Program-made: the position numbers and the translations under genes
Assembly (NCBI GenBank): GCA_045605805.1
Contig: JAZUQR010000026.1
Span: 6,101-70,100, forward strand
Direction of reading: 5' to 3'
DNA: 64,000 nucleotides
Source of the DNA: Alphaproteobacteria bacterium
GTDB lineage: Bacteria; Pseudomonadota; Alphaproteobacteria; CAAHEQ01; UBA3637
Shown here: positions 29,749 through 51,151 of the stretch, in pieces
Layout: each line of letters begins with the position of its first letter
How positions within the stretch are numbered: the first letter of the stretch is position 1
Notes under the pieces: generated by a model
Database searches by the model: none
What the model was told of the DNA's origin: nothing
What the model saw: only the letters and a program-made list of their open reading frames with translations

Positions 29749-30153
29749 ATGGATAAAAAACGGATAACTGTCACCGCTGGAATCATTGAATATGAAAACA
29801 AGATTTTAATTGCCGAACGACGCAAAGATAAATCTTTGGGTGGTTTGTGGGAGTTTCCTGGTGGTAAAATTGAACAGGGCGAAACTTGCCCCGAAACGCT
29901 GAAACGGGAAATTAAAGAAGAGTTTGATATTGAAATTGAAGTGGGTGAGTATGTGATGGAACACATCTTTGAATATCCCACCTTCTTCTTGAAAATGTAT
30001 GTTTATAAAGCCACATGGAACGGCCAAGGCACAATTCGGATTTGTGACCACGAACAATATCGCTTTGTCACATTGGATGAAATGGCCAATTTTGAATTTG
30101 CCGGTGCTGATGTGCCAGTCATTGAGTTTTTGAAAAACAATCAAAAATCTTGA
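29749..30153 (+). CDS. Nudix hydrolase, MutT-like (8-oxo-dGTP diphosphatase type)
   Basis: Nudix box 'GGKIEQGETCPETLKREIKEEFDI'. Confidence 0.75.
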   Translation: MDKKRITVTAGIIEYENKILIAERRKDKSLGGLWEFPGGKIEQGETCPETLKREIKEEFDIEIEVGEYVMEHIFEYPTFFLKMYVYKATWNGQGTIRICDHEQYRFVTLDEMANFEFAGADVPVIEFLKNNQKS

Positions 30154-30169: not shown

Positions 30170-31112
30170 TTGATGAGATTAGGATTATTCAAATTGCGCA
30201 ACCGCTTCATTAAAGCCTATGATGAAGGGTGGTTGCCCCCATGCGATGGACATGAAATACATTATTATCAGGTGGGTAATCCATCAGGTGAAGTGGTCAT
30301 TCATTTTCATGGTGGGCCAGGGGGTAGTGCAAAGCCAAGCAGAGCCAGCACCTATAATTTGAAAAAACAAAGAATTATTATGTTTGACCAACGAGCCTGT
30401 GGCCAATCAAGATATCAAGAGGCGTTTTATAAAAACACCCCACAGGATACAGTCAAAGACTGCCAATCGTCTGTTAAAGGCTTTGAAGATAAAGGGGAAA
30501 GTGGTGTCGGCCGGTGCGTCTTTTGGGGCAACATTGGCGGTGTTGTTTGCCCAAACATATCCCCAAAAAATCAAGCGGTTATGTGTGAATAGTGTCTTTT
30601 TGGGCCGACAAAAGGATGTGGAAAATATGACGCCTGTGTCAGATTTATTCTATCCGGATGCGGTGGCACAAGTGAAAAAACAAGTAAAAGGAAAAAACTT
30701 AAATAAAAGCTATGCCCAATTGGTTTTTAGTAAAAAGCAATCAGATAATGAAAAAGCATTGCGTTATTTTGCTCACTTGGAACGCATGGCAGGCGGTGGA
30801 GCATTAAAGGTTGATTTTCCAAAAACATCCTTTACGGAAAAAGATGTTCATCGCTTTCGGGTTTATATGCATTATGTCAAGAATAATATGTTCTTAAAGC
30901 CCAATCAATTGATAAAAGAGGCCACAAAAATAAAACATATTCCGGCTGAGATTTTTCAAAATCGCCTGGATTTTTGCTGTCCGCCCTATCAAGCATGGGA
31001 ATTACATCAAGCATTGCCAAAATCAAAATTGACCCTTGTGGCTGATAAAGGACATGGAAGCACTTTAATGGGGTATCTGATGTATCTGGGTAATAAAGCA
31101 AGAAAGTATTAA
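30170..31112 (+). pseudogene. Proline iminopeptidase-type alpha/beta hydrolase, disrupted by +1 frameshift near 30450
   Basis: N-terminal 'HFHGGPGGS...IIMFDQRACGQS' in one frame, continuation 'ANRLLKALKIKGKVVSAGASFGATLAVLFAQTYP' in another. Junction consistent with a single extra T in 'gactgcc'. Confidence 0.55.
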
Positions 31113-33398: not shown

Positions 33399-33570
33399 GG
33401 GTGACCAGTCAGATTTCAAAAGTGACCAGCCCCCGATTTTTGAAAATAGTATAAGTATTTGATATTACTGTATTTTTATGCGGCCAGTGACGAGACCGAT
33501 TTTTTCTGTTTCGCTAAAAAAATGGCGCGGCTTGTGTCCCCGAATATGAATTATCACCAGGAAGGATCCG
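33399..33570. repeat. Conserved ~170-bp non-coding element, copy A (GTGACCAG iterons plus conserved core 'ttcgcta.aaa.atggcgcggcttg.gtccccg.atatgaa...ccaggaagga')
   Basis: Aligns at ~75% identity with 51152-51318, same orientation. Confidence 0.6.
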
Positions 33571-33633: not shown

Positions 33634-33966
33634 TCATATCTGTTGGATTTCAATCCCCAGCACGCCATATTTTTGTTGAGAATCAGGTGTATAAAATTCT
33701 TGTAAAACCGTAATCAATTCTTCTTTGGATGTAAAACCTGCCTGTTCCGGTGTGATAATTTGGCATAGTTTATCAAAACTTTCGGCCCTGTGCAGGTTTA
33801 TGACCCGAGCAACAAAGGAATCATTTGTATCAGATAAATTAGAAAACACAATCTTATCCCCTATTTTTATTTGTTGCCTTTTTTCGTCAAACAACCTAAG
33901 CTCAACAACTTTTTTACCTGATTTTAACAGATTGTAATACTTTGTTTGGACTTTCATATGATGCAT
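33634..33966 (-). CDS. ASCH-domain protein (YqfB-like)
   Basis: 'LKSGKKVVELRL...IKIGDKIVF' and C-terminal 'YGVLGIEIQ' parallel E. coli YqfB architecture. Confidence 0.55.
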   Translation of the reverse strand: MHHMKVQTKYYNLLKSGKKVVELRLFDEKRQQIKIGDKIVFSNLSDTNDSFVARVINLHRAESFDKLCQIITPEQAGFTSKEELITVLQEFYTPDSQQKYGVLGIEIQQI

Positions 33967-34038: not shown

Positions 34039-34563
34039 ATGCAAATAAAAACTTTTCATTCTTTTCACAAAGAGCATAAAAAGTTATACGAAGATATTTT
34101 AAGTTTAACTTATTCTGTCAATGATACTTACCCACAATATTCAACTTGGTTTAAAGAAAAGTTTTTACCAGACCTTAAAAATAAAAAAAGGATGTATATC
34201 GTTGCACAGGATGAAAGCGGAAAATTAGTTGGTTGTGTTTTGATTAAAAACACCGAAGAAGAAAAGAAAATTTGTACATTATTGGTTCATCCGGATTATC
34301 GCAAACAAGGTGTTGGTGAAAAACTGATGGAACAAACTTTATCAGAATTAGGTGAGCACCCTTTGATAACCGTTTCTGATAGAAATATAGCACAACTAAC
34401 TCCTCTTTTAAGAAAAAAAGGTTTTCATTTATCGGCAGTTAAAAAAGGGGCTTATCGTCCAGAAGACACAGAGTATTATTTTAACGATAAAAAAGCAGAT
34501 GCTATAAAAAACGGTCTTATTCCCGTTTTAATCAAAAGAATGAATAAATTACGTCAAAAATAA
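34039..34563 (+). CDS. GNAT-family N-acetyltransferase
   Basis: Motif A 'LLVHPDYRKQGVGEKLMEQ'. Confidence 0.7.
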   Translation: MQIKTFHSFHKEHKKLYEDILSLTYSVNDTYPQYSTWFKEKFLPDLKNKKRMYIVAQDESGKLVGCVLIKNTEEEKKICTLLVHPDYRKQGVGEKLMEQTLSELGEHPLITVSDRNIAQLTPLLRKKGFHLSAVKKGAYRPEDTEYYFNDKKADAIKNGLIPVLIKRMNKLRQK

Positions 34564-34591
34564 ATATTTTTCATCGCCTCATTTCAGGCAC

Positions 34592-34633
34592 GAAAAAAGC
34601 CCGTTTCAAACGGGCTGAATCTTAAATTGGTGG
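34592..34633. repeat. 42-bp direct repeat identical to 53901-53942 (tRNA-Ala 3' end plus terminator hairpin); putative att site, left island boundary
   Basis: Exact 42/42 match. Sequences diverge immediately outside. Confidence 0.7.
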
Positions 34634-34813
34634 TGTTACTTGATTTTTGAACGAAAAGGATGCATTTGTCCTTTGCTTTTGGGGCATTTTGCAAATGACT
34701 TGTATGCAAAAATAGTGTTGCTTATCGTCAAAAATGCACCTTTTCAAAATATAAGTTGATAAATCTGTAAATAAGAGCATGTATGGTGATCTCCTCAATT
34801 GAAAGGAGAATAC

Positions 34814-34909
34814 ATGGAAAAACAACTTAAACTCTTGGCTCAAATCATCCTGCCAACGCTCTTAACCGTATTGAAAGATAATAAAAAAAATAAAAAACAC
34901 CGATCTTAA
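34814..34909 (+). CDS. Possible 31-aa hydrophobic/Lys-tailed small peptide
   Basis: Strong RBS gaaaggagaatacATG. 'MEKQLKLLAQIILPTLLTVLKDNKKNKKHRS'. Confidence 0.2.
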   Translation: MEKQLKLLAQIILPTLLTVLKDNKKNKKHRS

Positions 34910-34926: not shown

Positions 34927-35397
34927 CTACTTTTCGGTTTTTTTATAGAGAATAAAGTGAGGTAATTTATCCATATCTATATAATTAAACATTTTATAAT
35001 TAGCTCGTCTGGCTTCAGGAGATAAGGTGTACTTTCTTAAATGATCCTTAGGGACGAAAGGATAGAACCAAATCTCATGATGTGAAACACCTTTTTCTTT
35101 CCATTTAAAATTGAGAATTAACAACGGAGGTAAAATCCCAGCTTTCAAAACTTTTTCCATAATGTCCCAACCGGCTCCACGAACAACGGATGAAGGTTTA
35201 TGGTTAGCACTTTTAATTTGGGCGCGAAAATTACAGCCAGTACATTGAATATCACACAGCGGATAATTGTTTGGTAAAAGCATTAACTTTTTACCGCCAT
35301 TAGGACAACAGACCAAATCTACAACTTCTTGTTCCCCAAGCTTTCCATTTTCCTGGTTAATTGACATTTCTACCTCCATATCTGTTGTTATATACAT
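34927..35397 (-). CDS. Hypothetical protein with Cys-cluster (CC-x11-C-x3-C-x2-C, zinc-ribbon-like)
   Basis: ORF with 'CCPNGGKKLMLLPNNYPLCDIQCTGC'. Confidence 0.4.
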   Translation of the reverse strand: MYITTDMEVEMSINQENGKLGEQEVVDLVCCPNGGKKLMLLPNNYPLCDIQCTGCNFRAQIKSANHKPSSVVRGAGWDIMEKVLKAGILPPLLILNFKWKEKGVSHHEIWFYPFVPKDHLRKYTLSPEARRANYKMFNYIDMDKLPHFILYKKTEK

Positions 35398-35508: not shown

Positions 35509-35763
35509 ATGAATACAGTTAAAGTTTATTTGGTGCGAAAACCTTTGGATTTTGAAGAAGTAAAAAACTTATGCAAAAAGTATGCGCATAAGGCCGAAGA
35601 GATCTTAATTGAAGAAACTGTCAACCTACCACCAACTTGGTATGAGGAGTTTTGCCAACGCCCATTGGATAACTACATTTTCTTATCCGGTAAAGGCGGT
35701 TATGATGATTTAGGCCACCGCAAAGTAGTTGCTATAAAATGCCTAGGCAAGCCAACGCTCTAG
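35509..35763 (+). CDS. Small protein family A (paralog of 50738-51046); ends at an in-frame TAG
   Basis: RBS aaaggag. 'YIFLSGKGGY' shared with paralog. Confidence 0.55.
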   Translation: MNTVKVYLVRKPLDFEEVKNLCKKYAHKAEEILIEETVNLPPTWYEEFCQRPLDNYIFLSGKGGYDDLGHRKVVAIKCLGKPTL

Positions 35764-35809
35764 GTTGATCCTTCCGGCTCAAGCTATTGCCGATATATGG
35801 GAGTAGAAA

Positions 35810-36046
35810 ATGAAAAATTATAATGACATTCCTCCAAATTACAAAATCAGCATGCCGATGGTTTATAACCACGCAATTAGAGTACTTGATAGGCTGGATA
35901 GACGACTGAGCAGACTTAACACCCCAGCGCTACCGATTAAATACAAATACGAAATCAATCGTCTAGAACATAAACTGGAACAAATGGTCGCTAAATACAA
36001 AGCCATTGAAAAGGAGTTGGAATATGTCCGAACCAAAATATCCTGA
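35810..36046 (+). CDS. Hypothetical small coiled-coil protein
   Basis: RBS gggagtag. Absent from the paralogous cassette. Confidence 0.3.
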   Translation: MKNYNDIPPNYKISMPMVYNHAIRVLDRLDRRLSRLNTPALPIKYKYEINRLEHKLEQMVAKYKAIEKELEYVRTKIS

Positions 36047-36227
36047 GATAACTGTGCACCTGGCAGGTGAAAATGGGAATGCTTTTTATATTTTAGGCAA
36101 ATGTCGTTCGGCGATGAGGCGTGCTAACATCTCCAAAGAAGAACAAGATGAATTTTACCGCCAAGCCACCGCCAGCGACTATAATCACTTATTCATCACC
36201 TGTATGGAATGGTTTAATGTAGAATAG
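36024..36227 (+). CDS. Small protein family B (paralog of 50530-50727)
   Basis: RBS aaggag. 'KYPEITVHLAGENGNAFYILG' conserved with paralog 'KYPDIIVQLTGKDGNAFNILG'. Confidence 0.55.
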   Translation: MSEPKYPEITVHLAGENGNAFYILGKCRSAMRRANISKEEQDEFYRQATASDYNHLFITCMEWFNVE

Positions 36228-36292: not shown

Positions 36293-37216
36293 ATGCAACC
36301 CAAATTTTTACATTCTTTTGTGACGCGTTCTCATAAAGGCGTTTATGGCATTATTCGGAAAAATAATCAGATTTTACTCATCCGTAAAGCACGTGGTCCC
36401 TATACAGGGCTTTATGATTTGCCCGGTGGAAGTCCGGAAGCTGATGAAACACCTGAACAAACAGTGGCTCGTGAAATCAAAGAAGAAACAAATTGTGATT
36501 TAATTTCTTGCACCAACCAACGTGAAAAAACAATTTTCTTTTCCAAATTTACCAAAGAAAGTGGAGAAGAAGGCTGTATGCAACACACGGGGATTTTGTT
36601 TGATGTTAAGGTGGCGGGTGAACCCACAACCCAAGGGGATGGATTAGATTCCAATGGAGCTGTTTGGGTAGATATCAATACTTTATCCAGTCAAAATGCA
36701 ACACCTTTTGTTTTAATGGGCTGTGGTAAGGAAGTTATCAATTTAGCCAATGAAGAGGATTACCCTGTGGATGTCGCTGTGCGTGGGGAACCTATCCCCG
36801 AAGGAAGGTGTCCCATGATTGCAGGTCTCTTTTTGTTCAACTCTAAAGGCAATATTATTTTGCAGAAAGTGGCTTTATCAAAGAAAACAGATCCGGGGAA
36901 ATGGAGTTATTCTGCTGCTGGGCATGTGGATGCTGGTGAAACTTATGAACAGGCTGCCTTACGTGAATTAAGCGAAGAAATGGGAATTAAGGCCTCCGGC
37001 ATAACCTTTGTTGGAAAAGGCCATATATTAAAGAACGGCAATCCTCGTGCTTTTCATCATGTATTCAAGGTGATTTCTGATGATAAGATTACTTTTGAAC
37101 CGACCGAGGTAGCCGAAGTTAAAGAATGGACTATTCCGGAATTAAAAGAGCAAATAGGGACTCACCCCGAACAATTCAAAGATATTTTTGCCCAAATTTT
37201 TATGGAGGTCTTTTAA
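36293..37216 (+). CDS. Tandem (double) Nudix hydrolase
   Basis: Two Nudix boxes: 'GGSPEADETPEQTVAREIKEETNCD' and 'GHVDAGETYEQAALRELSEEMGI'. Confidence 0.75.
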   Translation: MQPKFLHSFVTRSHKGVYGIIRKNNQILLIRKARGPYTGLYDLPGGSPEADETPEQTVAREIKEETNCDLISCTNQREKTIFFSKFTKESGEEGCMQHTGILFDVKVAGEPTTQGDGLDSNGAVWVDINTLSSQNATPFVLMGCGKEVINLANEEDYPVDVAVRGEPIPEGRCPMIAGLFLFNSKGNIILQKVALSKKTDPGKWSYSAAGHVDAGETYEQAALRELSEEMGIKASGITFVGKGHILKNGNPRAFHHVFKVISDDKITFEPTEVAEVKEWTIPELKEQIGTHPEQFKDIFAQIFMEVF

Positions 37217-37229
37217 TCAAGGAGGAAAC

Positions 37230-37664
37230 ATGTCAGGACCAGAAAGATTTAAAGTACCCGTTGGGATTTTTATAATGCTACGTCAAGACGATAAAGTTTT
37301 GTTGCAGCTGAGGCAAAATTGCTCGTTCAGTGGATATTGGGGATTCGTTGGTGGCCATTTGGATGGAAATGAACAGATCATCTCTGCCGCTATTCGTGAA
37401 GCAAAAGAGGAAGTCGGGGTGGATATTTTACCGGACGATTTGACCTTAAAGACCATTTGCCACAGTAATAAAGGCGAAGAGTACCTGCAATTTTATTTTG
37501 AATGTCGCAAGTGGTTAGGTGAAATTGAAAATAAGGAGCCCCACAAATGCGAACGCTTGGAATGGCATGAATGGAATAAGCTCCCTGAGCATACTTGTCC
37601 CTATTTGAAGGAAGCAGTAAGCAAAATCAATTCAGGAATTTCTTTTTACGAGGATACTTTTTAA
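37230..37664 (+). CDS. Nudix hydrolase
   Basis: 'GGHLDGNEQIISAAIREAKEEVGVD'. RBS aaggagg. Confidence 0.75.
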   Translation: MSGPERFKVPVGIFIMLRQDDKVLLQLRQNCSFSGYWGFVGGHLDGNEQIISAAIREAKEEVGVDILPDDLTLKTICHSNKGEEYLQFYFECRKWLGEIENKEPHKCERLEWHEWNKLPEHTCPYLKEAVSKINSGISFYEDTF

Positions 37665-38254
37665 TGCTGAATAAACTTATTTACTTAACGACAAATCCTC
37701 ATAAAGTTCAAGAAGCCAATGAATTTCTTATTAAGAAATATGGGTTTAATTTGGAAATCATGAAACCTTCTTTTGAAGTGCTGGAGATTCAAGCAAAAAC
37801 TTGTGGCGAGGTTGCGAAATTTAGCGCTAAGTATGGGGCTGAAAAACTGGGAGTTCCGGTTTTGAAATCCGATTCAGGACTTTATATCGAAGCATTGGGC
37901 GGTTTGCCAGGACCTTATAATGCCTATTTTGACAAGCAAATAGGAACAGAAAAGTTTTTGGATATGATGAAAGATATCCCAAATAGGCATGCTAAATTGG
38001 AACATTGTTTTGCTTATTGTGAGCCAGGACAAGAACCCATCTTGTTTACAGGGGGAAGTACGGGGCGTATTTCTTATGAAGCCAAAGGAGAGAAAGGGCG
38101 TTGGCATGACAAGTTTTATATCCCTGATGGGGAAGAAAAAACACTCAGCGAATTACGCGCCATCAACCATGAATATGAGGCACAATTTTGGGGACATGCC
38201 TTGGATGACTTTGCAAAATGGTACAAAGAAAAATTAGAAAAGGATAAAATTTAG
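37664..38254 (+). CDS. Ham1/Maf-superfamily non-canonical purine NTP pyrophosphatase (ITPase-like)
   Basis: 'LTTNPHKVQEAN' and 'SDSGLYIEALGGLPGPYNAYF' motifs. TAATG overlap with upstream gene. Confidence 0.7.
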   Translation: MLNKLIYLTTNPHKVQEANEFLIKKYGFNLEIMKPSFEVLEIQAKTCGEVAKFSAKYGAEKLGVPVLKSDSGLYIEALGGLPGPYNAYFDKQIGTEKFLDMMKDIPNRHAKLEHCFAYCEPGQEPILFTGGSTGRISYEAKGEKGRWHDKFYIPDGEEKTLSELRAINHEYEAQFWGHALDDFAKWYKEKLEKDKI

Positions 38255-38268
38255 TGAAAGGATAACAA

Positions 38269-38850
38269 ATGCAATTACCAGAACAAATTGAATCAGAACG
38301 GATTATTTTAAAGCACCCTATGAAACCGACCTTTAAATTGGCTGAGGAGCTTTACGCGATTGTGGATAAATCCAGAAATACTTTAAGCGAATGGCTCCCT
38401 TGGGTGGATAAAACGAACTCTGTAGAGGATGAATTTACTGGATATCTGGTGAGTCTGAATCAAAAACATTGGGATGAAGGAAATGGTTTCGGTTATCTTA
38501 TTTATCAAAAGGAAACAAATCAGATTTTAGGCGTTGTGGATTTATGCCATGTTGAGGAAAAACATCAATCCGCCGAAATCGGGTATTGGCTCTCTGATGA
38601 CGCAACAGGTCATGGGTATATGCAAGAGGCTGTGCGTGCGTTGGAAAGCGAGGCCTTTCAAAATGGACTTAACCGGATTATCATCAGAAATGATACTTTG
38701 AATATACGCTCTGCCCATGTGGCTGAACGCTGTGGTTATATTTTGGAAGGTGTCATGCGTCAAGATTGTTGGGATGATTATCATCAGCATTTACGTAATA
38801 CCAATATCTGGAGCAAACTCAAATCCGAATGGGAGAAAGAACAAAAATGA
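38269..38850 (+). CDS. GNAT acetyltransferase (RimJ/RimL-like)
   Basis: 'IGYWLSDDATGHGYMQEAVRAL' motif. Confidence 0.7.
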   Translation: MQLPEQIESERIILKHPMKPTFKLAEELYAIVDKSRNTLSEWLPWVDKTNSVEDEFTGYLVSLNQKHWDEGNGFGYLIYQKETNQILGVVDLCHVEEKHQSAEIGYWLSDDATGHGYMQEAVRALESEAFQNGLNRIIIRNDTLNIRSAHVAERCGYILEGVMRQDCWDDYHQHLRNTNIWSKLKSEWEKEQK

Positions 38851-40058
38851 TTTCACTCAAATCAGCCCCTAGATGGTTATCTATTGCTTATGCCTTAACA
38901 TCGGCATTGTTTTGCCTGCCGACATTAATGCTTTTTTATGGGTTTAAAGGTGTTGGTATGGGGGATTTTTTCTTGATTCAAGGGATATCAAATCTCACTG
39001 TATTTTTTATGGAAGTTCCAACCGGCTATATCGGTGATTTGTTTTCCAGAAAACACACTTTAATTATCGGGGTATTGTTTTGGATCTTGGGGCATGTTAT
39101 TTGGATTTTGGGTTCAGGATTTTTCATTATTTTACTGGGGGAATTGTTATTTGCATTAGCGATTGCTTTCATTTCCGGCACGGCGGAAGCATATTTATAC
39201 GATTTATTGAAAAAACGACATAAAGAAAGTTTATTCCATAAAAAATATGCTAAAATGAAAATGTTGGATGGAATTGCTTTGATGGTGGCTACGCTGACCG
39301 GTGCTTTTATCTATCAATTTTTGGGGCCAACCATTCCGTTATACTTAACAATTTTCTGTTTAATGTTAAGTGTTGTTATTTTATGGCAATTACCGGATGT
39401 TCCCGAATCCAGACGTATTGTTGACAAAGATAAAAGCAAATGGCAGGATATTTTGGATATTTCCAAATATGCCGTTAAACATCCTGAAATAAAATGGCTG
39501 ATGCTTTTACCGGCGGTGTATGGGACATTAACGCTTATTTTGATGTGGGGATTACAATCCGTTATGGTATTTCATCAATTACCTGTATTTGTTTTCAGTT
39601 TGATTTTAGGGATAAACGCATTGATGAGAACTTTTTGGTCGGGCGTTTCCGGTCGGATATTGGAAAAAATAAACCTTTCCGGAACCATAAAATTGCAAAG
39701 TTTAATTATTATCATTGCCTCTTTGGGGGCATGTATATCGGCCTATGTTCCGTTATGGGGTGTTTATATATGTTTGGGCTTGATGATTATCGGATCAGCC
39801 TCCAGTTCTTTATCCAGTATCACAACATCTGTTTTGGTCAATCATAGGATTCAATCCAATGAACGGGCGACAATTTTATCGGTTAAATCAATGCTGGCAA
39901 AGGCTTTTCATGGGGTGGGACTTATCTGCTTGAAACCCTTGTTTGACGGAATAGGTGTCGGACCAACTTTTATGGTATCTGCCCTGCTTTTAATCCCTAT
40001 TCTGATTTGTGCAAGACACCTGTATAAGATGAAGTTAAGGATAATGAAAGGGGACTGA
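38847..40058 (+). CDS. MFS transporter
   Basis: 12 TM helices. ATGA overlap with upstream stop. Confidence 0.7.
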   Translation: MISLKSAPRWLSIAYALTSALFCLPTLMLFYGFKGVGMGDFFLIQGISNLTVFFMEVPTGYIGDLFSRKHTLIIGVLFWILGHVIWILGSGFFIILLGELLFALAIAFISGTAEAYLYDLLKKRHKESLFHKKYAKMKMLDGIALMVATLTGAFIYQFLGPTIPLYLTIFCLMLSVVILWQLPDVPESRRIVDKDKSKWQDILDISKYAVKHPEIKWLMLLPAVYGTLTLILMWGLQSVMVFHQLPVFVFSLILGINALMRTFWSGVSGRILEKINLSGTIKLQSLIIIIASLGACISAYVPLWGVYICLGLMIIGSASSSLSSITTSVLVNHRIQSNERATILSVKSMLAKAFHGVGLICLKPLFDGIGVGPTFMVSALLLIPILICARHLYKMKLRIMKGD

Positions 40059-40059
40059 T

Positions 40060-40953
40060 ATGCTGATACTGAACATCAATGGGCCAATGAATTCTGGGAA
40101 ATCTACGGTTTCTAAGATTTTGGTGAATATGCTCCCTAACGCCACTTTTATTGAAGTGGATGAATTAATGAGTGATGAGGAACAAGAAAAACTGGGGCTA
40201 TCCCTGCAACAAGGGTGGCGGGAACGTCATAAACGATTAAATCAGAAATTAAGGGCTCTTAAAAAATCGCATGAGTATGAAACTGTGATTTTTGCTTATC
40301 CGATTGCTGACAATACTTATCAGGATTGGAAAATGCTGGAGGATAACCACACAAAGTTTTTGAACATTACCCTTGCGCCCAGTTTGGAAGAATGTTTGAA
40401 AAATCGTGGCACACGAGAACTCACCGATTGGGAAAGAAATCGCATTCGTGAAATGTATGAAGAGGGATATCAAAACCGCCCATACGCCGACTTTATCATC
40501 AATAATGACCATCAAACACCCAAAGAAACTGCTGAGATTATTAAAGGATTTATTGAACATGCTCTCTCCCCAAAACAACAATGGTTACATTTGGTGGAAA
40601 AACGTTGGCCCGCCCTTTTGAACGGAGAAAAAACTTCCACTTTCCGTTTCAATGAAGGTTTCATCCATAAGGGCTTCTTGGTTTATAAAGACTGCCCAAA
40701 CGAACAGTTGGCCGAGGTTGTTTATGTGACACATGTGTATTATGTGCCTTTGCGCCAAGCCAATGAAATAGACGGATATGATGAGCATACACCGGATATG
40801 GAAACAGCCTTAAAACAAATGCGTGTTCATTATCCAGATATTACTTTGGATACGCCCATTTTATTTGCTCAGCACTTAGGAGTTCCTGAAACCAAACAGA
40901 AATATCCAGAAGAAGTTAAAGAAATATTGGAGAAAATGAATGTCAAAAACTAA
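40060..40953 (+). CDS. P-loop small-molecule kinase (CPT/zeta/uridine-kinase-like) fused to a C-terminal ASCH-like domain
   Basis: Walker A 'INGPMNSGKSTV'. C-terminal 'LLNGEKTSTFRFNEGFIHKG' ASCH-like. Confidence 0.5.
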   Translation: MLILNINGPMNSGKSTVSKILVNMLPNATFIEVDELMSDEEQEKLGLSLQQGWRERHKRLNQKLRALKKSHEYETVIFAYPIADNTYQDWKMLEDNHTKFLNITLAPSLEECLKNRGTRELTDWERNRIREMYEEGYQNRPYADFIINNDHQTPKETAEIIKGFIEHALSPKQQWLHLVEKRWPALLNGEKTSTFRFNEGFIHKGFLVYKDCPNEQLAEVVYVTHVYYVPLRQANEIDGYDEHTPDMETALKQMRVHYPDITLDTPILFAQHLGVPETKQKYPEEVKEILEKMNVKN

Positions 40954-41347
40954 ATTATCAGTATGTGGTGTCATTGTACATCAGAGCAAATTTCTAATAG
41001 TCAAACGTTCTGAAACAGATGACTTTTTGCCAAATTGTTGGGAATTCCCTGGTGGTGGTGTAGAAGATGGTGAAACAATATCCGAAGCCTTGAAACGAGA
41101 AATAAAAGAAGAAATAGGTTGGGATATATCAAATGAATATCCAAAACTCATCGGTATTTCTGAAGAGTTTATGAATGAAGAAAAAACAGAAAGATATTTA
41201 CAATTAAATTATAAGATTGTTATGGACACAGAACCCAACATGACACTCAGTTCCGAACATGTCGCTTTTGATTGGGCGGACACGACCGATTCCAGATTGG
41301 ACGATTTTCTAAAAGAGATTATTAGGCAACTGAATACAACAATCTAA
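40940..41347 (+). CDS. Nudix hydrolase
   Basis: 'GGGVEDGETISEALKREIKEEIGWD'. Confidence 0.7.
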   Translation: MSKTKLSVCGVIVHQSKFLIVKRSETDDFLPNCWEFPGGGVEDGETISEALKREIKEEIGWDISNEYPKLIGISEEFMNEEKTERYLQLNYKIVMDTEPNMTLSSEHVAFDWADTTDSRLDDFLKEIIRQLNTTI

Positions 41348-41729
41348 ACTCTTCGCATTCTAACATTGTGTCAGGGGTAATGTCTTTCCAATATGCCTTG
41401 TGAATTTTGCGCCAAGTAGCAAGGGTTTTATCTCCTTCGCCTTCTTTACGAGCAAAATCGGCATCTACATTATTAAAAGGAACAACAGAGACTTTGGTAT
41501 CCTCAATAATTGCTTGAGCATTACCAGTAGAATCTAGGATAATACTGATATCTCCTGCTTGATTGGTATTGCCACCTCGATAAATGCAACTAGTGGCCGT
41601 TTTCTCGCCACTTATGACCAATTGCAACAACTCATCTGGTTTGTCGCCAAAAGTAAAGATGTCATAAGATTTGCCTTTATATGATGGGAACTTTTCAACA
41701 AACTCTTTCCATAATTGTTCGGGAGTCAT
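41322..41729 (-). CDS. ASCH-domain protein
   Basis: 'FTFGDKPDELLQLVISGEKTATS' canonical ASCH N-terminal motif. Confidence 0.65.
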   Translation of the reverse strand: MTPEQLWKEFVEKFPSYKGKSYDIFTFGDKPDELLQLVISGEKTATSCIYRGGNTNQAGDISIILDSTGNAQAIIEDTKVSVVPFNNVDADFARKEGEGDKTLATWRKIHKAYWKDITPDTMLECEEFRLLYSVA

Positions 41730-41983: not shown

Positions 41984-42440
41984 TTTTCTCCAAATAATCT
42001 AAAAACGCTTGGCAACCTTCATAAATATCCCAATAGGTTTCATCAAAGTTGCCAGTGTACCAAGGGTCTTTAACTGGTCGAGGATTTTGGGTGAAGTCCA
42101 ACAGACGATGCACTTTATGGTCTTTATCCTCGCCAACGATATCCAAAATATCCCGCACATTGTTATCGTCCATCGCCAAAATATAGTCAAATTTATCATA
42201 GTCGGACTTGCGAATTTGACGCGAGTAGTGTTGGGTGAAAGGGACTTTCATCTGCCGAAGCATATCCGCCGCTCGGTAATCCAGCGCCTCATGCACCATT
42301 TCGTTATACCCCTCTGTCGCGGCAGAGACAATTTCAAACTTGTCCGCTACACCTTTCTCAGCGACCATTTGCTTCATCACAAATTCCGCCATTGGCGACC
42401 GACAAATATTTCCAAGACATACGAATAGAACTTTAATCAT
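41970..42440 (-). CDS. Low-molecular-weight protein-tyrosine phosphatase / ArsC-like
   Basis: 'VLFVCLGNICRSPMAE' CX5R P-loop and 'DPWY' motif. TAATG overlap with hsdR stop. Confidence 0.8.
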   Translation of the reverse strand: MIKVLFVCLGNICRSPMAEFVMKQMVAEKGVADKFEIVSAATEGYNEMVHEALDYRAADMLRQMKVPFTQHYSRQIRKSDYDKFDYILAMDDNNVRDILDIVGEDKDHKVHRLLDFTQNPRPVKDPWYTGNFDETYWDIYEGCQAFLDYLEKNDLH

Positions 42441-45400
42441 TAAGCAACCCTCACATTGTCTGTCCAAAGTTCACATTGAGTCATAACCGTTTCAACGGCA
42501 TCCTCTACACCTTCTGGGGGATACTTATGCTTTTTCAATAACTTTTTAATAAGCATACGCATCTTTGCACGAGCATTCTCACGCCTTTGCCAGTCAATTG
42601 TTTTATTTTTACGCAGTGTTTCTGTTAGTTCTTTTGTAATGGCAACTAATTCGTCATTTTCATAAAAATCCTTAACTGCTTGAGGCTTTGTTAATGCATC
42701 ATAAAAGGCAACTTCTTCTGGTGTTAATCCTAAATCTGCCCCTTCCTTTTGGGCCTCCGAAATTTGTTTTGCCAGGCTGAGTAACTCTTCTATTACCTGC
42801 TCGTTGGTAAGCATACCATTTAGGTAGCGGTTCATAATTGCCTGAATTATTTCACTAAACTTTTCAGAACGCACAACGTTTGTTTTACGGTAAATAGAAA
42901 TTTGTTCTGCAATTAATTTTTTCAAAAGTTCAAGGGCTAAATTCTTTTGTTTCATTTTTGAAATTTCTTCCAAAAACTTCGGATCAAACAAAGAAAATTC
43001 TTTCTTTACATCAGAAAATAAATTAATAACGCCATCGCTTTTTATACTTTGTTTCAGCAACTCATTAATACGTTCATTCATTTCCTTCAAAGAAATCTTT
43101 TTGCCTTCTCCTGCATTAGTTAAGCGTAAGGTCAAAACACGAACGGCTTCCATAAAAGCGGCTTCTATGCGTTTTTCTTCCTTAACAATAGAAGAACACA
43201 AAGATAAGGATTGATGTAGCATCAAGGCATGCTTCAGGAATTGTTCTTTTTTCTTATCTGTTCCAATAATAAAGTTTACTGCCCCACTAATAAGCTCAGC
43301 ACGCTTTAAATTACTACCCGTCATAAATTGTTGATAATCAAATCCATGCAATAAATCACGACAAACACTTAATTTTTCTTCAAATTCTTTAAGTGCTGTT
43401 TCAGCGATATTCATATTTCCATAGTTCTTTTTATCACGAACTGTGTAATCGTTCATCGCTTGTTTCAGCGCATTTGCAATTCCGACATAATCTACAACAA
43501 GTCCACCTTCTTTATCCTCAAATACACGATTAACGCGAGCTATTGCCTGCATTAAATTATGTCCCATCATTGGTTTATAAACATACATCGTTGCCAAAGA
43601 AGGTACATCAAATCCGGTCAACCACATATCCACCACAATGGCAATTTTTAGAGGATCTTTGTTATCCTTAAATTTACGGGCCAACGCTTCTTTATGAGAT
43701 TTATTTCCAATGATTTGACGCCAATCTTCTGGGTCATCATTACTAGAAGTCATCACAACCCCCACTTTTTCTTTCCAATTGGGACGTAATTTTAAGATTT
43801 CTTCATAAATTTTCAAAGCAATAGGACGTGAATAAGCAACAATCATCGCCTTTCCAGTAAGCAAGTTTTCCCGATAATTTTCATAGTGGTCTATAATATC
43901 GTTTACCAAGGAATGAATAGTGTTATCATTCCCCAGAATTGCTTCCATTTGCCCAAGTTTCTTTTTACTTGCTTCAATGACTTCAGGATCTGCATTTTGG
44001 GCCATTAAATCATATTCATCATCAATTTTCTTGAGTGTTTCTTTATCCAGATTCAACTTAACCACTCGACTTTCATAGTAAACGGGGCGAGTTGCTCCAT
44101 CTTCCACAGCCTGTGTCATATCATAGATATCAATATAATTTCCAAACACTTCTTGCGTATTTCTGTCTTTTTTGGAAATAGGTGTCCCCGTAAACCCGAT
44201 AAATGTTGCATTTGGAAGACTATTGCGGATAACACGAGCAGTCCCTGTTTTAATTTTCCCGTCTTTGGTTATTTTTTCCGCCAAACCATATTGCCCCCGA
44301 TGAGCTTCATCTGCCATCACAATAATATTCCGGCGAGTGGACAATGGCTCTTCGGATTCTTCAAACTTCTGCATCGTTGTAAAGAAAATCCCATTGGCCT
44401 TGATACCATTTAATAACTTTTTCAAATGTTCCCGACTAGTTGCTTGAACGGGTTCTTGTCTTAAAAAGTCTTTACATTTGGCAAATTGTCCATAGAGTTG
44501 ATCGTCCAAATCATTGCGGTCTGTTAGTACCACAATTGTCGGACTGTTTAAAGCACTTTGTAGCAGGTGGGCATAAAACACCATAGATAAAGATTTACCA
44601 GAACCTTGTGTATGCCAAAACACACCACCTTTACCATCTGTTTCTGTTGCTTTTTGAGTTGAAGTAATGGCTTTTTTCACCGCGAAGTATTGGTGATATC
44701 CGGCCAAGATCTTTTTGCTTCCTTTATTTTCATTGGAAAAGCAAATAAAGTTCTTCAAAATATCCAAGAGTCTCTCTTTTGGAAAGATGCCTTTAAAAAA
44801 AGTATCAAACTGTGCGTGTTGGGTATTTTCATATTTTCCATCCACAGTTTTCCATTCCATAAAGCGTGTTTCATCAGAAGTAATCGTTCCCGCCTTGGAT
44901 GTCAATAAATCGCTTGTGACGCAAATAGCGTTATAGATAAACATAGAGGGGATTTCATGTTTATAGTTTTGGATTTGGCGATATGCCTCGGAGGCATCTG
45001 TTTCTTCACGGGAAGGAGATTTCAACTCCATCAAAACCAAAGGCAATCCGTTCACAAATAACAAAATATCCGGACGTTTTTCGCTGTTTTCAATAAAGGT
45101 CCATTGGTTAGCTACAATAAAAGAGTTTTTATCAGGTCTATTATAATCAATCAAATAAACAATGGTATCTTTGGGTTCTCCCTTTTCTGTATAGCGAACC
45201 GTAATACCACTTTGCAAATACTCCATAAACACAGCATTCTTTTGTGTTAGTTCTGCGTTCTCAAAGTTCTTTAATTTTGTTAAGGCCTCTTTAATCGCCA
45301 CTTCGGGAAGTTTAGGATTCAAGCGGCACAAAGCATCAATCAACTCATCTTCGTATAAGGGAGAATGAAAATCCCGACTTTCTAAATCAGGCCCATAGAC

Positions 45401-45487
45401 ATACCGATACCCCATCCCCTCAAACAACTCTATTACAGAGTTTTCATAAGCTTCTTCATTTACAGGATTGATAAAAGTATCGGTCAT
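42440..45487 (-). CDS. hsdR: Type I restriction enzyme R subunit
   Basis: 'TQGSGKSLSM' motif I, 'MADEAHRGQ' DEAH box, 1015 aa, HsdR N-terminal nuclease region. Confidence 0.9.
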   Translation of the reverse strand: MTDTFINPVNEEAYENSVIELFEGMGYRYVYGPDLESRDFHSPLYEDELIDALCRLNPKLPEVAIKEALTKLKNFENAELTQKNAVFMEYLQSGITVRYTEKGEPKDTIVYLIDYNRPDKNSFIVANQWTFIENSEKRPDILLFVNGLPLVLMELKSPSREETDASEAYRQIQNYKHEIPSMFIYNAICVTSDLLTSKAGTITSDETRFMEWKTVDGKYENTQHAQFDTFFKGIFPKERLLDILKNFICFSNENKGSKKILAGYHQYFAVKKAITSTQKATETDGKGGVFWHTQGSGKSLSMVFYAHLLQSALNSPTIVVLTDRNDLDDQLYGQFAKCKDFLRQEPVQATSREHLKKLLNGIKANGIFFTTMQKFEESEEPLSTRRNIIVMADEAHRGQYGLAEKITKDGKIKTGTARVIRNSLPNATFIGFTGTPISKKDRNTQEVFGNYIDIYDMTQAVEDGATRPVYYESRVVKLNLDKETLKKIDDEYDLMAQNADPEVIEASKKKLGQMEAILGNDNTIHSLVNDIIDHYENYRENLLTGKAMIVAYSRPIALKIYEEILKLRPNWKEKVGVVMTSSNDDPEDWRQIIGNKSHKEALARKFKDNKDPLKIAIVVDMWLTGFDVPSLATMYVYKPMMGHNLMQAIARVNRVFEDKEGGLVVDYVGIANALKQAMNDYTVRDKKNYGNMNIAETALKEFEEKLSVCRDLLHGFDYQQFMTGSNLKRAELISGAVNFIIGTDKKKEQFLKHALMLHQSLSLCSSIVKEEKRIEAAFMEAVRVLTLRLTNAGEGKKISLKEMNERINELLKQSIKSDGVINLFSDVKKEFSLFDPKFLEEISKMKQKNLALELLKKLIAEQISIYRKTNVVRSEKFSEIIQAIMNRYLNGMLTNEQVIEELLSLAKQISEAQKEGADLGLTPEEVAFYDALTKPQAVKDFYENDELVAITKELTETLRKNKTIDWQRRENARAKMRMLIKKLLKKHKYPPEGVEDAVETVMTQCELWTDNVRVA

Positions 45488-46338
45488 TTTTTCTCCTTTA
45501 ATCCTTTAAGAAATTCAGCCATTTTGTTTTTCCGTTCTTTATTATCTTTAGCCAAAACGCAGAATAAAAGCAATTGATAAATTTCATCATACCACTTTTC
45601 TAATTCTTCATTGGTCAGATTTGTTACTAGATTATTTTTCTTTTTACCTGCCTTGTTATTATGACGAATATCTAAATTATTAAGCATATTCTTTGCAGTT
45701 TTGAAATAATCAGTGAATCCGTCAATAGGATTATCTAAAATAGGTTCATATTCCTGAGCAATTCGACGTAAAATATCTTTTTTTTCTGCTAATTGTCCCT
45801 TTAATGATGCATGATGGTATTTTAAAATTGCCATTGCTGTATCTGTAGAGGAAATTTCTGCTACAGCTGTTGCAGCAGGATTTTTAGGAATTAAAATAAC
45901 TTTTTCTTCTTCAGTAAATATCTTCTTTTCATGGTGAATATGTTCTAAAAGCAAATCTATATTACTCAAAAGCATAGGATATTCATTATAATACTGAAAA
46001 TTAATATTTTGACGACCAACTCCTCGCTTCTGTATCAATAAATTTATAAGATTAAGATAATACTCTAAAATTGTTACCATTTCATCAGTGGTATCCACAT
46101 GTTCTGAAATGAATATTTTGTGTCTCATTTCATCACAGTTTAAGCAACTTCCTCTTTGCTTCCAATTTACAAAAGCATAACTATCTACCATTTGTTCAAT
46201 AGTTCCCTGTGTTTGTTGAAAATTTAAAGGATTTGTATACACCAACATTGCGGTATTAAATAATTTAACAATTTTTCGAAATTCTTTTTGAAAATCATAC
46301 TTGCTTGCTAAAATTTCAAAGATATTTTTACGAGTCAT
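45484..46338 (-). CDS. Uncharacterised protein embedded between hsdS and hsdR (284 aa)
   Basis: ATGA overlaps on both sides. No motif I can assign. Confidence 0.55.
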   Translation of the reverse strand: MTRKNIFEILASKYDFQKEFRKIVKLFNTAMLVYTNPLNFQQTQGTIEQMVDSYAFVNWKQRGSCLNCDEMRHKIFISEHVDTTDEMVTILEYYLNLINLLIQKRGVGRQNINFQYYNEYPMLLSNIDLLLEHIHHEKKIFTEEEKVILIPKNPAATAVAEISSTDTAMAILKYHHASLKGQLAEKKDILRRIAQEYEPILDNPIDGFTDYFKTAKNMLNNLDIRHNNKAGKKKNNLVTNLTNEELEKWYDEIYQLLLFCVLAKDNKERKNKMAEFLKGLKEKK

Positions 46339-46808
46339 GGGGCATCCTTTTTATTTTCCAGTGGCTTATTAAAACAATCGATATTCTTTTTTAGTTCTAC
46401 TGTTAAATCGTTGGTTACAGCATATATTTTATAATCTTTTATATTGGCAATATCTTTATTAGTATTATCATCTATTTTGGGAATAAAAACAGTATTATAG
46501 GGAGATATCACAAGGGGACTCCCTAACGCGGTCCAAAAACCACTTTGCGTATTATTATCTTCTACATATATACGGTAAATAACTTCCGTTTTATTTTTAT
46601 GATTAACAATGCAAAAGTTTGTTATATTTGCCTTTTGAGTCTTGTGATCATACATTGCTGTCGGCAAAACAATAGATAAATCGTGCCCCGTTCTTTCTTG
46701 TTTATCATCTTTTGCTATCTTTGCCATGGTCTTGGTAAGGAAAAATATGGCAATTGTCAAAATTAACATTGATGTTGATAAAACTATGTTCCAATCTATA
46801 TAAACCAT
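46335..46808 (-). CDS. Uncharacterised membrane-anchored protein embedded in RM operon (~157 aa)
   Basis: N-terminal TM 'VLSTSMLILTIAIFFL'. ATG at 46808 preferred over TTG at 46814. Confidence 0.5.
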   Translation of the reverse strand: MVYIDWNIVLSTSMLILTIAIFFLTKTMAKIAKDDKQERTGHDLSIVLPTAMYDHKTQKANITNFCIVNHKNKTEVIYRIYVEDNNTQSGFWTALGSPLVISPYNTVFIPKIDDNTNKDIANIKDYKIYAVTNDLTVELKKNIDCFNKPLENKKDAP

Positions 46809-46810
46809 AT

Positions 46811-48022
46811 TCAAACCTCCACATTATCGACATTGATTTTGCCGGACATGAGTTTGGGTAATAAAGTGTCTCGAAGTGCAGACAACTGGATATTTTCTCT
46901 TTGGTTTGCTTTAATTTGTGCAAACATTGGAGAAATCACAGAATGGAAATCTTTCAATTCAGATTCTTCTGGCATAACAAAAGGCATTGATTTAATAATT
47001 TTTGAATTAACGGCAGTTGCAATGGATGACGTGCTCCCCATTGTTTGAAAATTAAAGTTTTTCAAATAATAATACAAATATTCGTTTATTTCTTTTTTAT
47101 CTGTTCCAAAATGAGCAATGGCTTCGTTTGTTGCCATTTCTCCATCTGTAATTGCAATTCTTCCAACAGTCAGTTTAAAGCTCAATAGAACAGTATTATC
47201 TGGTACAATTTTAACATTAAATTTGGAAATTGACTCTGGAACTAAATATTCAGAACTATCAGAAATATACAGCCCACAATTTCCCATATCGGATATAGAT
47301 ATCCATTTAATATCATTAGTGTTTTTTGAAAACCATTCAGGCTCTTTTCGGGGAGGAGTTTTCCCGATTGTAATATTAAAAAATTCTTCAGCTTTTATCG
47401 TTTTTCTGTTTGGATTTATTTTATCTATGAACCAAGATTTAAAGAGGGCTTGGGCTTGGAGTTCGAGGTTTTGATTGATTTTGTTGTTCAGCTCTATCTT
47501 ATCATCCAGAGCCCCCAACACCCCCGCAATCTTCCTCTGCACCTCCACTGGCGGTATATTTACAGGGATGGAATACAAATGTCCAACCTTTATGCTAGGT
47601 TGTACAGAACTTATATTCAATGCTTGTATATAACTTTGTATATTGGGTTGAGATAAACAATAATACATGAATGTAGAGTCAATGTCCTCTTTATACTGCA
47701 TGGCAATGATGTTTTGCGCTATACACCCCTTATCTTGCGGCATTAAAGCAACTTTTCCAATGTTTCCAACAGTTGTTATTAAAACATCTTTTGGGTTGGG
47801 ATGTCCACTTCGAAACCAATTCTGATACGTTTCAATATTAACAAATTTTGATGCAGAAGCCAAATCTGGGTATCTATCTCCAGCTTTTAATAAGTTGCTT
47901 TCAAGTAGAGGAATGATACCTTCCGTATCCAAGGGTGCATTCTTTCCCCGGTTATCAATTGTATTTTTAACCAAATCCCCTAATTTAATCTCTCGCCAAC
48001 CTGACATTATATTATTTGCCAT
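46811..48022 (-). CDS. hsdS: Type I restriction-modification specificity subunit
   Basis: Two target-recognition-domain halves with conserved central/C-terminal helices. Start MANNIMSGW with RBS aggga. Confidence 0.8.
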   Translation of the reverse strand: MANNIMSGWREIKLGDLVKNTIDNRGKNAPLDTEGIIPLLESNLLKAGDRYPDLASASKFVNIETYQNWFRSGHPNPKDVLITTVGNIGKVALMPQDKGCIAQNIIAMQYKEDIDSTFMYYCLSQPNIQSYIQALNISSVQPSIKVGHLYSIPVNIPPVEVQRKIAGVLGALDDKIELNNKINQNLELQAQALFKSWFIDKINPNRKTIKAEEFFNITIGKTPPRKEPEWFSKNTNDIKWISISDMGNCGLYISDSSEYLVPESISKFNVKIVPDNTVLLSFKLTVGRIAITDGEMATNEAIAHFGTDKKEINEYLYYYLKNFNFQTMGSTSSIATAVNSKIIKSMPFVMPEESELKDFHSVISPMFAQIKANQRENIQLSALRDTLLPKLMSGKINVDNVEV

Positions 48023-48032
48023 CAAATATTCC

Positions 48033-50425: not shown

Positions 50426-50529
50426 TTTGGACCTCTTTTCGTTTAGAATCATAATATCGTAAATTCTAGCCGATTTTTTCTGAAAAGGCAATCAGAAATA
50501 TAAGGTCTGTTGTATTTAATTATGGTGCT

Positions 50530-50727
50530 TTACTCTACCTCAAACCATTTCATGCAGGTGGCAAGCAAGTGGTCGTAATTGCCGGAGGTGGCTTCTGCCT
50601 GAAAGGCATCTTGTTCTTTTTGATTCAAACCGGCTTGACGCATGGCTCTTAAACAGATACCTAGGATATTAAAGGCATTCCCGTCTTTACCGGTCAACTG
50701 GACAATAATATCAGGATATTTTGGCAT
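50530..50727 (-). CDS. Small protein family B' (paralog of 36024-36227)
   Basis: RBS aaggag. Conserved 'DHLLATCMKWFEVE' versus 'NHLFITCMEWFNVE'. Confidence 0.55.
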   Translation of the reverse strand: MPKYPDIIVQLTGKDGNAFNILGICLRAMRQAGLNQKEQDAFQAEATSGNYDHLLATCMKWFEVE

Positions 50728-50737
50728 GACGATCTCC

Positions 50738-51046: not shown

Positions 51047-51151
51047 GATAATCTCCTTTCGCATCACAATGAACGCTCTTTTTCGAAGAATTATCCAGTT
51101 ATTTCTGTACTAAATCGCAAGAAATATGCATTATTTTGAGGGGGTGACCAG

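Follow-up and report, generated by a model that had tools for sequence, protein, structure and literature searches.

A mosaic, translationally coupled array of nucleotide-handling and small-molecule-modifying genes on a decayed tRNA-Ala island of an alphaproteobacterium

House-cleaning nucleoside triphosphate (NTP) pyrophosphatases are encoded by scattered genes, whereas the locus described here stacks them in one coupled, predicted operon on a mobile island. It consists of seven genes (G1-G7; 36293-41347) in a 64,000-nt stretch of the alphaproteobacterial contig JAZUQR010000026.1 (assembly GCA_045605805.1, positions 6,101 to 70,100), the whole of which is referred to as the window, and it encodes Nudix, Ham1, GNAT, MFS and kinase-ASCH proteins. 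Intact Nudix boxes, the Ham1 TxNxxK motif and catalytic Asp, and typical sizes and single-domain architectures are shared with the known house-cleaning enzymes. With a little over even confidence, we interpret the locus as a clade-specific, co-directional, translationally coupled aggregate of independent house-cleaning or small-molecule-modifying enzymes, carried as cargo of a decayed island. This interpretation is built on direct observation of the genes present and their catalytic motifs, the structure of the island, the mosaic distribution of the array, homologues scattered elsewhere and fusions between domains.

Two further members of the array resemble described enzymes. The kinase-ASCH protein, G6, shares the GKTR octapeptide of the E. 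coli YqfB-type ASCH amidohydrolases and differs from them by the fusion of a P-loop kinase to its N terminus; the Lys and Thr/Glu of that octapeptide are residues shown to be necessary for deacylation of N4-acetylcytidine (ac4C) and N4-acylcytosine. G4 is an Acetyltransf_3 GNAT nearest to MccE, whose C-terminal domain, like RimL, detoxifies processed microcin C and aminoacyl-nucleotides. It differs from both in having no mcc biosynthetic or MccF context and a score below the RimL equivalog cut-off.

At the level of gene clusters, the Kongming defence system comprises the KomA adenosine deaminase, the KomC SIR2 protein and a HAM1 protein with its catalytic Asp replaced by His (bioRxiv 10.1101/2024.12.20.629578). 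The array likewise has a HAM1-family protein and nearby defence genes, and KomB is among the Protein Data Bank (PDB) hits of G3 (62 bits). The residue that is always His in defensive HAM1s is Asp in G3, which is also nearer to the archaeal, housekeeping-type PH1917. No KomA or KomC domain was found among the scanned open reading frames (ORFs) of 32.5-48.9 kb (HsdR, HsdS and HsdM were excluded from the scan), and Kongming was rejected on these three features. The (PIN)-GNAT-EVE operons, in which GNAT, ASCH and AAA_17-type ATPase genes are recurrently associated (Bell et al. 2020, PMC7641849), resemble the array in combining a GNAT, an ASCH domain and a small P-loop ATPase/kinase near a type I restriction-modification (R-M) system. 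They differ in that the array has no EVE or PIN domain, its GNAT is a stand-alone protein of RimL type and its ASCH domain forms a fusion with the kinase.

Integron cassette arrays and T4-type phage plasticity regions are also made of small, single-function genes on one strand, including acetyltransferase and Nudix genes, that turn over gene by gene. In contrast to integrons, a large serine recombinase serves the whole island here, and the changes look like microhomology deletion or recombination at stop codon/ribosome-binding site (RBS)/start codon junctions. An integron was rejected on the absence of IntI, attC sites and repeat families between the genes, the sole recombinase being a decayed serine type; the junctions, at -14 to +14 nt, leave no room for attC or other recombination sites.

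Gene content and catalytic motifs of the array

The seven ORFs are tightly packed and co-directional on the plus strand, as judged from the ORF list and Pfam annotation of the window, and the stop/start overlaps reported in the initial annotation were borne out. G2 and G3 are coupled through TAATG at 37662-37666, G4 and G5 through ATGA at 38847-38850, and G6 and G7 overlap by 14 nt (40940-40953); the other gaps measure 13, 14 and 1 nt. All seven are real genes, with orthologues at 80-98% identity in further genome assemblies. A scan for promoter and terminator consensus sequences returned no more sites than in shuffled sequence and no convincing terminator inside the array, so it is from the spacing of the genes that we infer co-transcription of G1-G7 as one unit. 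TTGATT-17-TATGCT, in the conserved spacer between the small upstream ORF sC and G1, is a weak candidate promoter, and the transcription unit could also start further upstream, at the small ORFs in 35509-36227.

Pfam supported the domain calls of the initial annotation (Nudix, Ham1/ITPase, GNAT, MFS, kinase-ASCH) with a correction to the number of Nudix domains, which had been given as five in three proteins and is four. G1 (36293-37216) is a two-Nudix protein (Pfam NUDIX in two stretches, E 3.5e-36), G2 (37230-37664) is a single-domain Nudix hydrolase (7.8e-18) and G7 (40940-41347) is a single-domain protein of MutT/NudG/NudI-like type (8.6e-17); a fifth Nudix gene of the neighbourhood, 29749-30153, lies outside the array. 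In the translations, the REUXEE core of the Nudix box (GX5EX7REUXEEXGU) is kept in all four domains (REIKEE and RELSEE in G1, REAKEE in G2, REIKEE in G7). Their best scores, 45-60 bits, are below the NCBIfam equivalog cut-offs of 95-250 for MutT, NudG, RppH and ADP-ribose (ADPR) pyrophosphatase. None of the seven array proteins reached an NCBIfam equivalog cut-off, and substrates are therefore not assignable by homology.

The closest solved structures, all at E-values of 1e-9 to 1e-10, were DR0079, IDI and YfcD for the C-terminal domain of G1, the RppH-like 3ees and MutT-like proteins for G2, and a putative CTP pyrophosphohydrolase, MutT and NudI for G7. DR0079 prefers CDP/CTP. The cytidine theme that recurs among these neighbours is only suggestive.

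G3 (37664-38254) is an archaeal-type NTP pyrophosphatase of the Ham1/ITPase family (Pfam Ham1p_like 1.6e-30, 106.8 bits) nearest to the archaeal enzymes PH1917 (96 bits) and Mj0226. It retains the N-terminal TTNPHK (T/SxNxxK) and the catalytic Asp in SDSGL. GRWHDKFY and QFWGH stand in place of the base-pocket motifs GFGYDPIF and SHR, making specificity for inosine or xanthosine triphosphate (ITP/XTP) doubtful, and the NCBIfam scores of 147 and 126 bits are below the cut-offs of 203 and 145. Ham1 genes also occur in tandem in related loci, with up to three paralogues of about 35% mutual identity (locus L009, 7050-8785; L006, 2605-3762). The catalytic Asp is kept and GFGYDP and SHR are absent in all of them, which suggests a diversified subfamily with non-ITP substrates.

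G4 (38269-38850) is a GNAT N-acetyltransferase of MccE/RimL type (Acetyltransf_3, 5.1e-22). Its best solved relative is MccE (3r95, 57 bits), followed by YdaF and RimL (RimL structures, 43 bits), and it scored 68.6 bits against the RimL model NF007539, for which the cut-off is 184. Scans of the window detected no mcc genes nearby. G5 (38847-40058) is an MFS transporter nearest to drug-efflux MFS families (MFS_1 4.2e-20, 72 bits), with weak matches to the HP1165, TetA(P) and Tet(40) models that fell far under their cut-offs.

G6 (40060-40953) joins a P-loop small-molecule kinase (SKI/AAA_18; residues 1-168) to an ASCH domain (residues about 172-290), and the predicted structure is a compact two-domain protein (predicted local distance difference test 93, predicted template-modelling score 0.90). 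The ASCH half scored 28 bits against a Pfam cut-off of 21.2 and carries the YqfB-type GxKxxTxR motif, whose G189, K191, T194 and R196 do not vary among 15 homologues. No PDB sequence matched this half, and in fold searches with G6 the kinase half accounted for most of the matches, none of which was to ASCH. Gluconate and shikimate kinases scored alike in the fold matches, and the kinase is as near to the tunicamycin-resistance protein TmrD and chloramphenicol phosphotransferase as it is to metabolic kinases. A nicotinamide adenine dinucleotide salvage system of NARP3 type (PnuC plus NadR-like protein), prompted by weak similarity to Nrk1, was rejected, there being no nicotinamide mononucleotide adenylyltransferase or PnuC.

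As judged by sequence clustering, the kinase-ASCH fusion with a YqfB-type motif is lineage-restricted: it is confined to one cluster at 50% identity in a set of 1.84 billion cluster representatives. No record matched the exact sequence of the window's G6, and PLSDB plasmids gave only separate, distant matches to the kinase (Burkholderia chromids) or to ASCH (Pantoea megaplasmids) in uninformative contexts. Homologues of the kinase and of the ASCH domain also exist as stand-alone proteins, apart from each other. Further fusions connect the same domains. G6-type kinases are fused to ASCH, to a short PF00719 pyrophosphatase (PPase)-like domain and to an AAA_33 kinase; double-Nudix proteins are fused to the PPase-like domain and to AAA_33 kinases; and Nudix-ASCH and glyoxalase-PPase-like fusions were also found.

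Mosaic distribution and the island

Eighty species-representative loci were collected with an alignment of G6 homologues as the query, the window genes were mapped onto them and neighbouring ORFs were clustered. Distribution counts refer to 77 species-level genomes that carry the kinase gene. Like the host of the window, the organisms that carry array homologues are uncultured Alphaproteobacteria of the gut (human, ruminant, rabbit and bird), with 'Candidatus Enterousia' and 'Candidatus Scatocola' among them. The complete G1-G7 order was present in the window and in one other genome only (L006), where the array has one additional Ham1 paralogue. The genes are gained and lost singly, so a single dedicated seven-gene module, as in the initial annotation, is not supported. 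Near-complete arrays were found in three loci (L007, L009 and L013), and partial arrays elsewhere took the forms G4-G6, G1-G2-G6, G1-G6, G5-G6, G3-G5-G6, G2-G6, G6-G7 and G6 alone.

Array size ranged from one to about 12 clearly related genes across the 77 genomes; two longer co-directional runs (L001 and L073) take in phage or unrelated genes. The contiguous same-strand array included a GNAT gene in 26 genomes and a Nudix gene in 24; a second kinase gene was part of it in 12, an MFS gene in nine and a Ham1 gene in seven. Spliced into other arrays are AAA_33/zeta-like and AAA_18 kinases, other GNATs, a hexapeptide acetyltransferase, His_Phos_1 and Peptidase_S51 genes, as well as a YpsA/SLOG protein, the glyoxalase-PPase fusion, CYTH, Nudix-ASCH and a nitroreductase; every neighbour family in the other arrays codes for a small hydrolase, transferase or kinase. 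Metabolic genes surround the kinase gene in most other genomes.

G1-G5 of the window are 91-98% identical to their L006 counterparts, and in the kinase-domain tree the window's G6 clusters with loci that have no other array genes, which makes the array a recombinant mosaic. The junctions between genes were rebuilt with single-gene precision in the relatives: G4|G6 as AATGTTAA, G2|G6 as TAAATG, G1|G6 likewise exactly, and G2|G3' (G3' being a second Ham1 paralogue) at a common TTTTAA followed by GGAGG. The tail of the 14-nt spacer between G3 and G4 (38255-38268, plus strand), GAAAGGATAACAA, exactly matches the last bases of G3' in L006, and on this match we identify the spacer as the scar of a deleted G3'. 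A comparable scar in L011 consists of the 3' tail of a deleted histidine-phosphatase gene (c28) in front of the next start codon. Read from the sequences, the junctions and scars fit microhomology deletion or recombination, selected for translational coupling, and not cassette-capture machinery.

For two of the genes, the double-Nudix and the Ham1, stand-alone homologues (49-82% identity) were found in core-like contexts, which refutes the initial proposal by its own standard of scattered core-genome orthologues. Ham1 genes of the G3 type (72-82% identity) occur elsewhere as single genes in core-like contexts. One such context, in organisms of 25-27% G+C content (GC), reads Peptidase_U32, M23, Ham1, KDO8P synthase; in another, on an alphaproteobacterial-like contig, an amylase gene and a TauE gene lie on either side. 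Double-Nudix genes of the G1 type (49-64% identity) stand alone beside alanyl-tRNA synthetase and apurinic/apyrimidinic endonuclease genes, among EF-Tu, SecB and SpoU genes, or with transporter genes on both sides (L091). One assembly has a G1-like gene (L093) and a G6-like gene (L077) on separate contigs.

The low-GC loci (L081-L086 and L089; 25-27%), one of them labelled 'Bacilli bacterium', have a Ham1 that is 75-78% identical to G3 in a conserved, core-like context. Identity of this order across wide GC and taxonomic distance suggests that this type of Ham1 was recently transferred horizontally among anaerobic, mostly gut, bacteria.

Other arrangements of the kinase gene were noted. In L001 (5569-9820) and L003 (5488-9820), the kinase-ASCH gene follows genes that look, from their sequence, like a phage lysis type (small membrane proteins and a 745-aa protein); it has its own promoter-like TTG...TATAAT site, and the arrangement resembles a moron position at a prophage end. 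In L038 (6442-9684) and L040, a kinase-only G6 homologue is flanked by genes for a nitroreductase, a classical SIR2 protein (PF02146) and a PPDK_N-domain protein, so that here, too, deacylase functions are found together with phosphotransferase functions.

The setting on an island next to an R-M system, as initially annotated, was confirmed. The island is about 19 kb long and is bounded by a 71-nt direct repeat with two copies that are 83% identical. The left, att-like copy (34568-34638), as aligned with the tRNA-Ala regions of the window and of L033, contains a terminator-like hairpin and about 8-11 nt matching the 3' tip of tRNA-Ala. The right copy (53877-53947, minus strand) abuts and overlaps the 3' end of tRNA-Ala(cgc) (53937-54012, minus strand). 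Fragments of a large serine recombinase gene lie at 52985-53714 (minus strand), with only part of the Recombinase domain, no N-terminal catalytic domain and a broken frame. These fragments are 90-96% nucleotide-identical to part of an intact gene in L007 for a 568-aa recombinase (Resolvase, Recombinase and Zn_ribbon_recom domains), which adjoins an equivalent array. In L033, the same tRNA-Ala site and repeat bear only one kinase-kinase fusion gene.

The features expected of an integrative island are therefore all present: tRNA adjacency, flanking repeats, an integrase and absence of the island from the L033 site. The repeat pair, the tRNA-Ala gene, the decayed recombinase with its L007 orthologue and the L033 site together identify the array as cargo of a decayed integrative element, and, because the integrase is decayed, the island is probably no longer mobile. 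GC of the island is only mildly lower than that of its flanks (0.38 vs 0.41-0.43). An Rfam scan detected just two tRNAs and one sub-threshold match, at the left end of the island.

The two copies of a second direct-repeat pair (33399-33566 and 51142-51308; 33 nt plus 78 nt, 82-85% identity) are separated by 17.7 kb. They fall in DNA that looks noncoding, one of them outside the left island boundary and the other inside. It may be what remains of an earlier, related element.

Other genes on and beside the island

Upstream of the array are three small phage-type ORFs on the plus strand: sA (35509-35763), which is shortened by a TAG at 35761-35763 beyond which the frame continues, sB (35810-46, from the ORF list) and sC (36024-36227), which matches phrog_1933 (3e-22) and 218 phage records. 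They also lie upstream of the array in L006, and sC alone does so in L013; sA-sC may share the array transcript. Inverted paralogues of sA and sC at 50530-51067 (minus strand) bracket the array and the R-M block. The two inverted repeats, I1 and I2, are 71-75% complementary and about 14.3 kb apart. In L013, hsdM directly precedes sC, an arrangement that inversion or recombination of the bracketed segment could produce.

A 156-aa DpnI-like, Dam-replacing gene (34927-35397, minus strand; PF06044, 8.3e-16) lies just upstream of the array and is divergent from it; by its domain match, the product is probably a methyl-directed restriction nuclease domain. It is preceded by a noncoding-looking element of about 280 bp (34620-34905) at the left end of the island that is 83-92% identical in seven other loci and is present twice in L007, flanking a DuOB-DUF488 gene pair. 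Within the element, a 31-codon ORF (34814-34909, plus strand; MEKQLKLLAQIILPTLLTVLKDNKKNKKHRS) has a good RBS and differs from copy to copy mostly at synonymous positions; its product may be a leader or a membrane peptide resembling type I toxins.

Downstream, a convergent stand-alone ASCH gene (41322-41729, minus strand; ASCH 2.3e-21; PDB 1t62 and 3s9x) overlaps the end of G7 by 26 nt at its 3' end. The type I R-M operon (42440-50491, minus strand) follows, with hsdR at 42440-45487, hsdS at 46811-48052 and hsdM at 48914-50491, and has the lowest GC of the window (0.32-0.37). Three ORFs are inserted in it (45484-46338, 46335-46814 and 48033-48917), with only weak NucC and Translin matches. Further island genes encode DUF3977, a low-molecular-weight protein tyrosine phosphatase, a nitroreductase and a DnaD-like fragment.

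The array's gene families are also represented just outside the island: the MutT-like Nudix gene already mentioned, a GKER-type ASCH/DUF3850 gene (33634-33966, minus strand) and a RimI-like GNAT gene (34039-34563). The host chromosome, too, keeps such genes close to the tRNA-Ala site. The ORFs 30170-30592 and 30384-31112 (plus strand, different frames) together resemble, from their translations, one frameshifted alpha/beta-hydrolase of proline iminopeptidase-like type, which looks like a pseudogene or an assembly error.

Possible roles of the array

If the array is an aggregate of independent enzymes, a promoter ahead of G1 or of the small ORFs would drive all its genes, and each product would work alone. 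The following substrates and physiological role are proposed. The four Nudix domains and Ham1 would convert non-canonical or modified (d)NTPs and NDP-X compounds to monophosphates and so prevent their incorporation or accumulation. The ASCH half of G6 would deacylate N4-acylated cytosine nucleosides or RNA, like YqfB-type enzymes, and the kinase half would phosphorylate a nucleoside-like or other small substrate. G4 would N-acetylate amino-bearing, nucleotide-like toxins or metabolites and thereby neutralize them, and G5 would carry a related compound across the membrane. Such a set would have arisen by aggregation, after which gene-precise deletion and recombination at stop/RBS/start junctions trimmed and reshuffled it; it would not be an obligate system.

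Several points weigh against this interpretation. With a DpnI-like gene on one side and a type I R-M system on the other, the array occupies a place on its mobile island that is typical of defence cargo. Its proteins all match characterized enzymes weakly (E-values of 1e-9 to 1e-14 in the PDB, NCBIfam scores below cut-offs). G6 was the query for the distribution counts, which leaves G6-less arrays out, and most of the sequences are metagenome bins, for which 'same genome, different contig' depends on binning. The domain fusions argue for a functional link among kinase, Nudix, ASCH and PPase-like functions at least, and 'fully independent' may be too strong.

One of the two proposals of the initial annotation was a self-resistance or detoxification cassette for a nucleoside-type antibiotic. 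A theme of nucleotide sanitation or detoxification fits the enzymology (Nudix boxes, Ham1 Asp, MccE/RimL-like GNAT, efflux-like MFS protein and kinase), but self-resistance does not stand because there are no biosynthetic genes. The cassette could instead protect against antibiotics of nucleoside or aminoacyl-nucleotide type that competitors in the gut produce (resembling microcin C or albomycin, or being N4-acyl or amino-nucleoside compounds). The toxin would be acetylated by the GNAT, phosphorylated by the kinase and deacylated by the ASCH domain, its activated NTP forms would be destroyed by Nudix and Ham1, and the MFS protein would export it. We regard this as unlikely. The relationship of G4 to the microcin C immunity acetyltransferase MccE, of G5 to efflux-type MFS models and of the G6 kinase to TmrD and chloramphenicol phosphotransferase is what one would look for, as are the carriage of the array on a mobile island and the hexapeptide acetyltransferases, glyoxalase/bleomycin-resistance domain, PPDK_N protein and nitroreductases of other arrays. 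However, every score against a resistance family is far under its curated cut-off, the genes are gained and lost singly and not cassette-wise, homologues elsewhere are in core-like contexts, and four Nudix domains and a Ham1 would be unusual resistance determinants.

Editing or repair of RNA is less probable still. Here ASCH would erase ac4C from tRNA, tRNA or the ends of RNA would be substrates of the fused kinase with its PNK/PSTK-like fold, caps or 5' ends would be processed by an RppH-like Nudix, and RNA or aminoacyl-tRNA would be acetylated by the GNAT. Deacetylation of tRNA ac4C is indeed catalysed by ASCH proteins with either type of motif (bioRxiv 10.64898/2026.02.27.708502), the best PDB match of G2 is an RppH-type Nudix, and the association of GNAT, ASCH and AAA_17-type ATPase recurs in (PIN)-GNAT-EVE operons (PMC7641849). 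Against this, the fold matches are non-discriminating, with gluconate and shikimate kinases scoring equally; RNA ligase, PIN, EVE and HTH partners are absent; Ham1 and the MFS protein do not fit; and variable gene content speaks against a fixed pathway.

The other initial proposal, anti-phage defence or counter-defence of the island acting on nucleotide pools or immune signals (dITP, ADPR-derived or cyclic; or depletion of modified dNTPs needed by phage), we consider very improbable. It retains the position beside the R-M system, the phage-type small ORFs upstream, the DuOB-DUF488 pair in the equivalent upstream slot of L007 and a Ham1 distantly related to KomB. The Nudix proteins match the PADLOC candidate PDC-S07, a single Nudix (G1 69, G2 46 and G7 73 bits), which is a generic MutT-like model with no curated cut-off. 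Beyond this generic similarity, PADLOC gave nothing except three weak matches unrelated to any system (G6 to pVip-kinase, 3.4e-5; G4 to MTase_II, 1.2e-3; ORF 45484-46338 to NucC, 4.5e-4). No effector- or sensor-type domain is present in the array, the hallmarks of Kongming are missing as described above, and a scan of IMG/VR with the G6 alignment and of GenBank phages detected no relatives of G6. The stand-alone homologues in core-like contexts and the metabolic neighbours of the kinase in most other genomes also argue against defence.

A more specific possibility, which we put forward as speculative and regard as unlikely, is that the recurrent kinase/ASCH/double-Nudix/PPase-like fusions and adjacencies mark an undescribed pathway of gut Alphaproteobacteria for the salvage or detoxification of cytidine nucleosides and nucleotides that bear N4-acyl groups or other modifications. 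In such a pathway, the kinase-ASCH protein would be a bifunctional 'deacylate-then-phosphorylate' enzyme, and the array would be exchanged cassette-like at stop/start junctions with no integron machinery. Within the aggregate that we favour, a functionally linked core of kinase, ASCH, Nudix and PPase-like proteins deserves biochemical work.

If the array is such an aggregate, it would be a cautionary case: nucleotide-handling enzymes clustered beside an R-M system on an island need not be defence. The gene-precise reshuffling of a translationally coupled operon would make a tidy case study in operon evolution. Three leads would also follow, namely a lineage-restricted kinase-ASCH fusion possibly coupling deacylation of ac4C or N4-acylcytidine to phosphorylation, a subfamily of Ham1 proteins in which the base pocket is altered and up to three paralogues stand in tandem, and a kinase/Nudix/PPase-like/ASCH fusion network that predicts functional coupling. 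These leads would bear on how never-cultured, small-genome gut bacteria clean their nucleotide pools amid modified nucleosides and nucleoside-like toxins.

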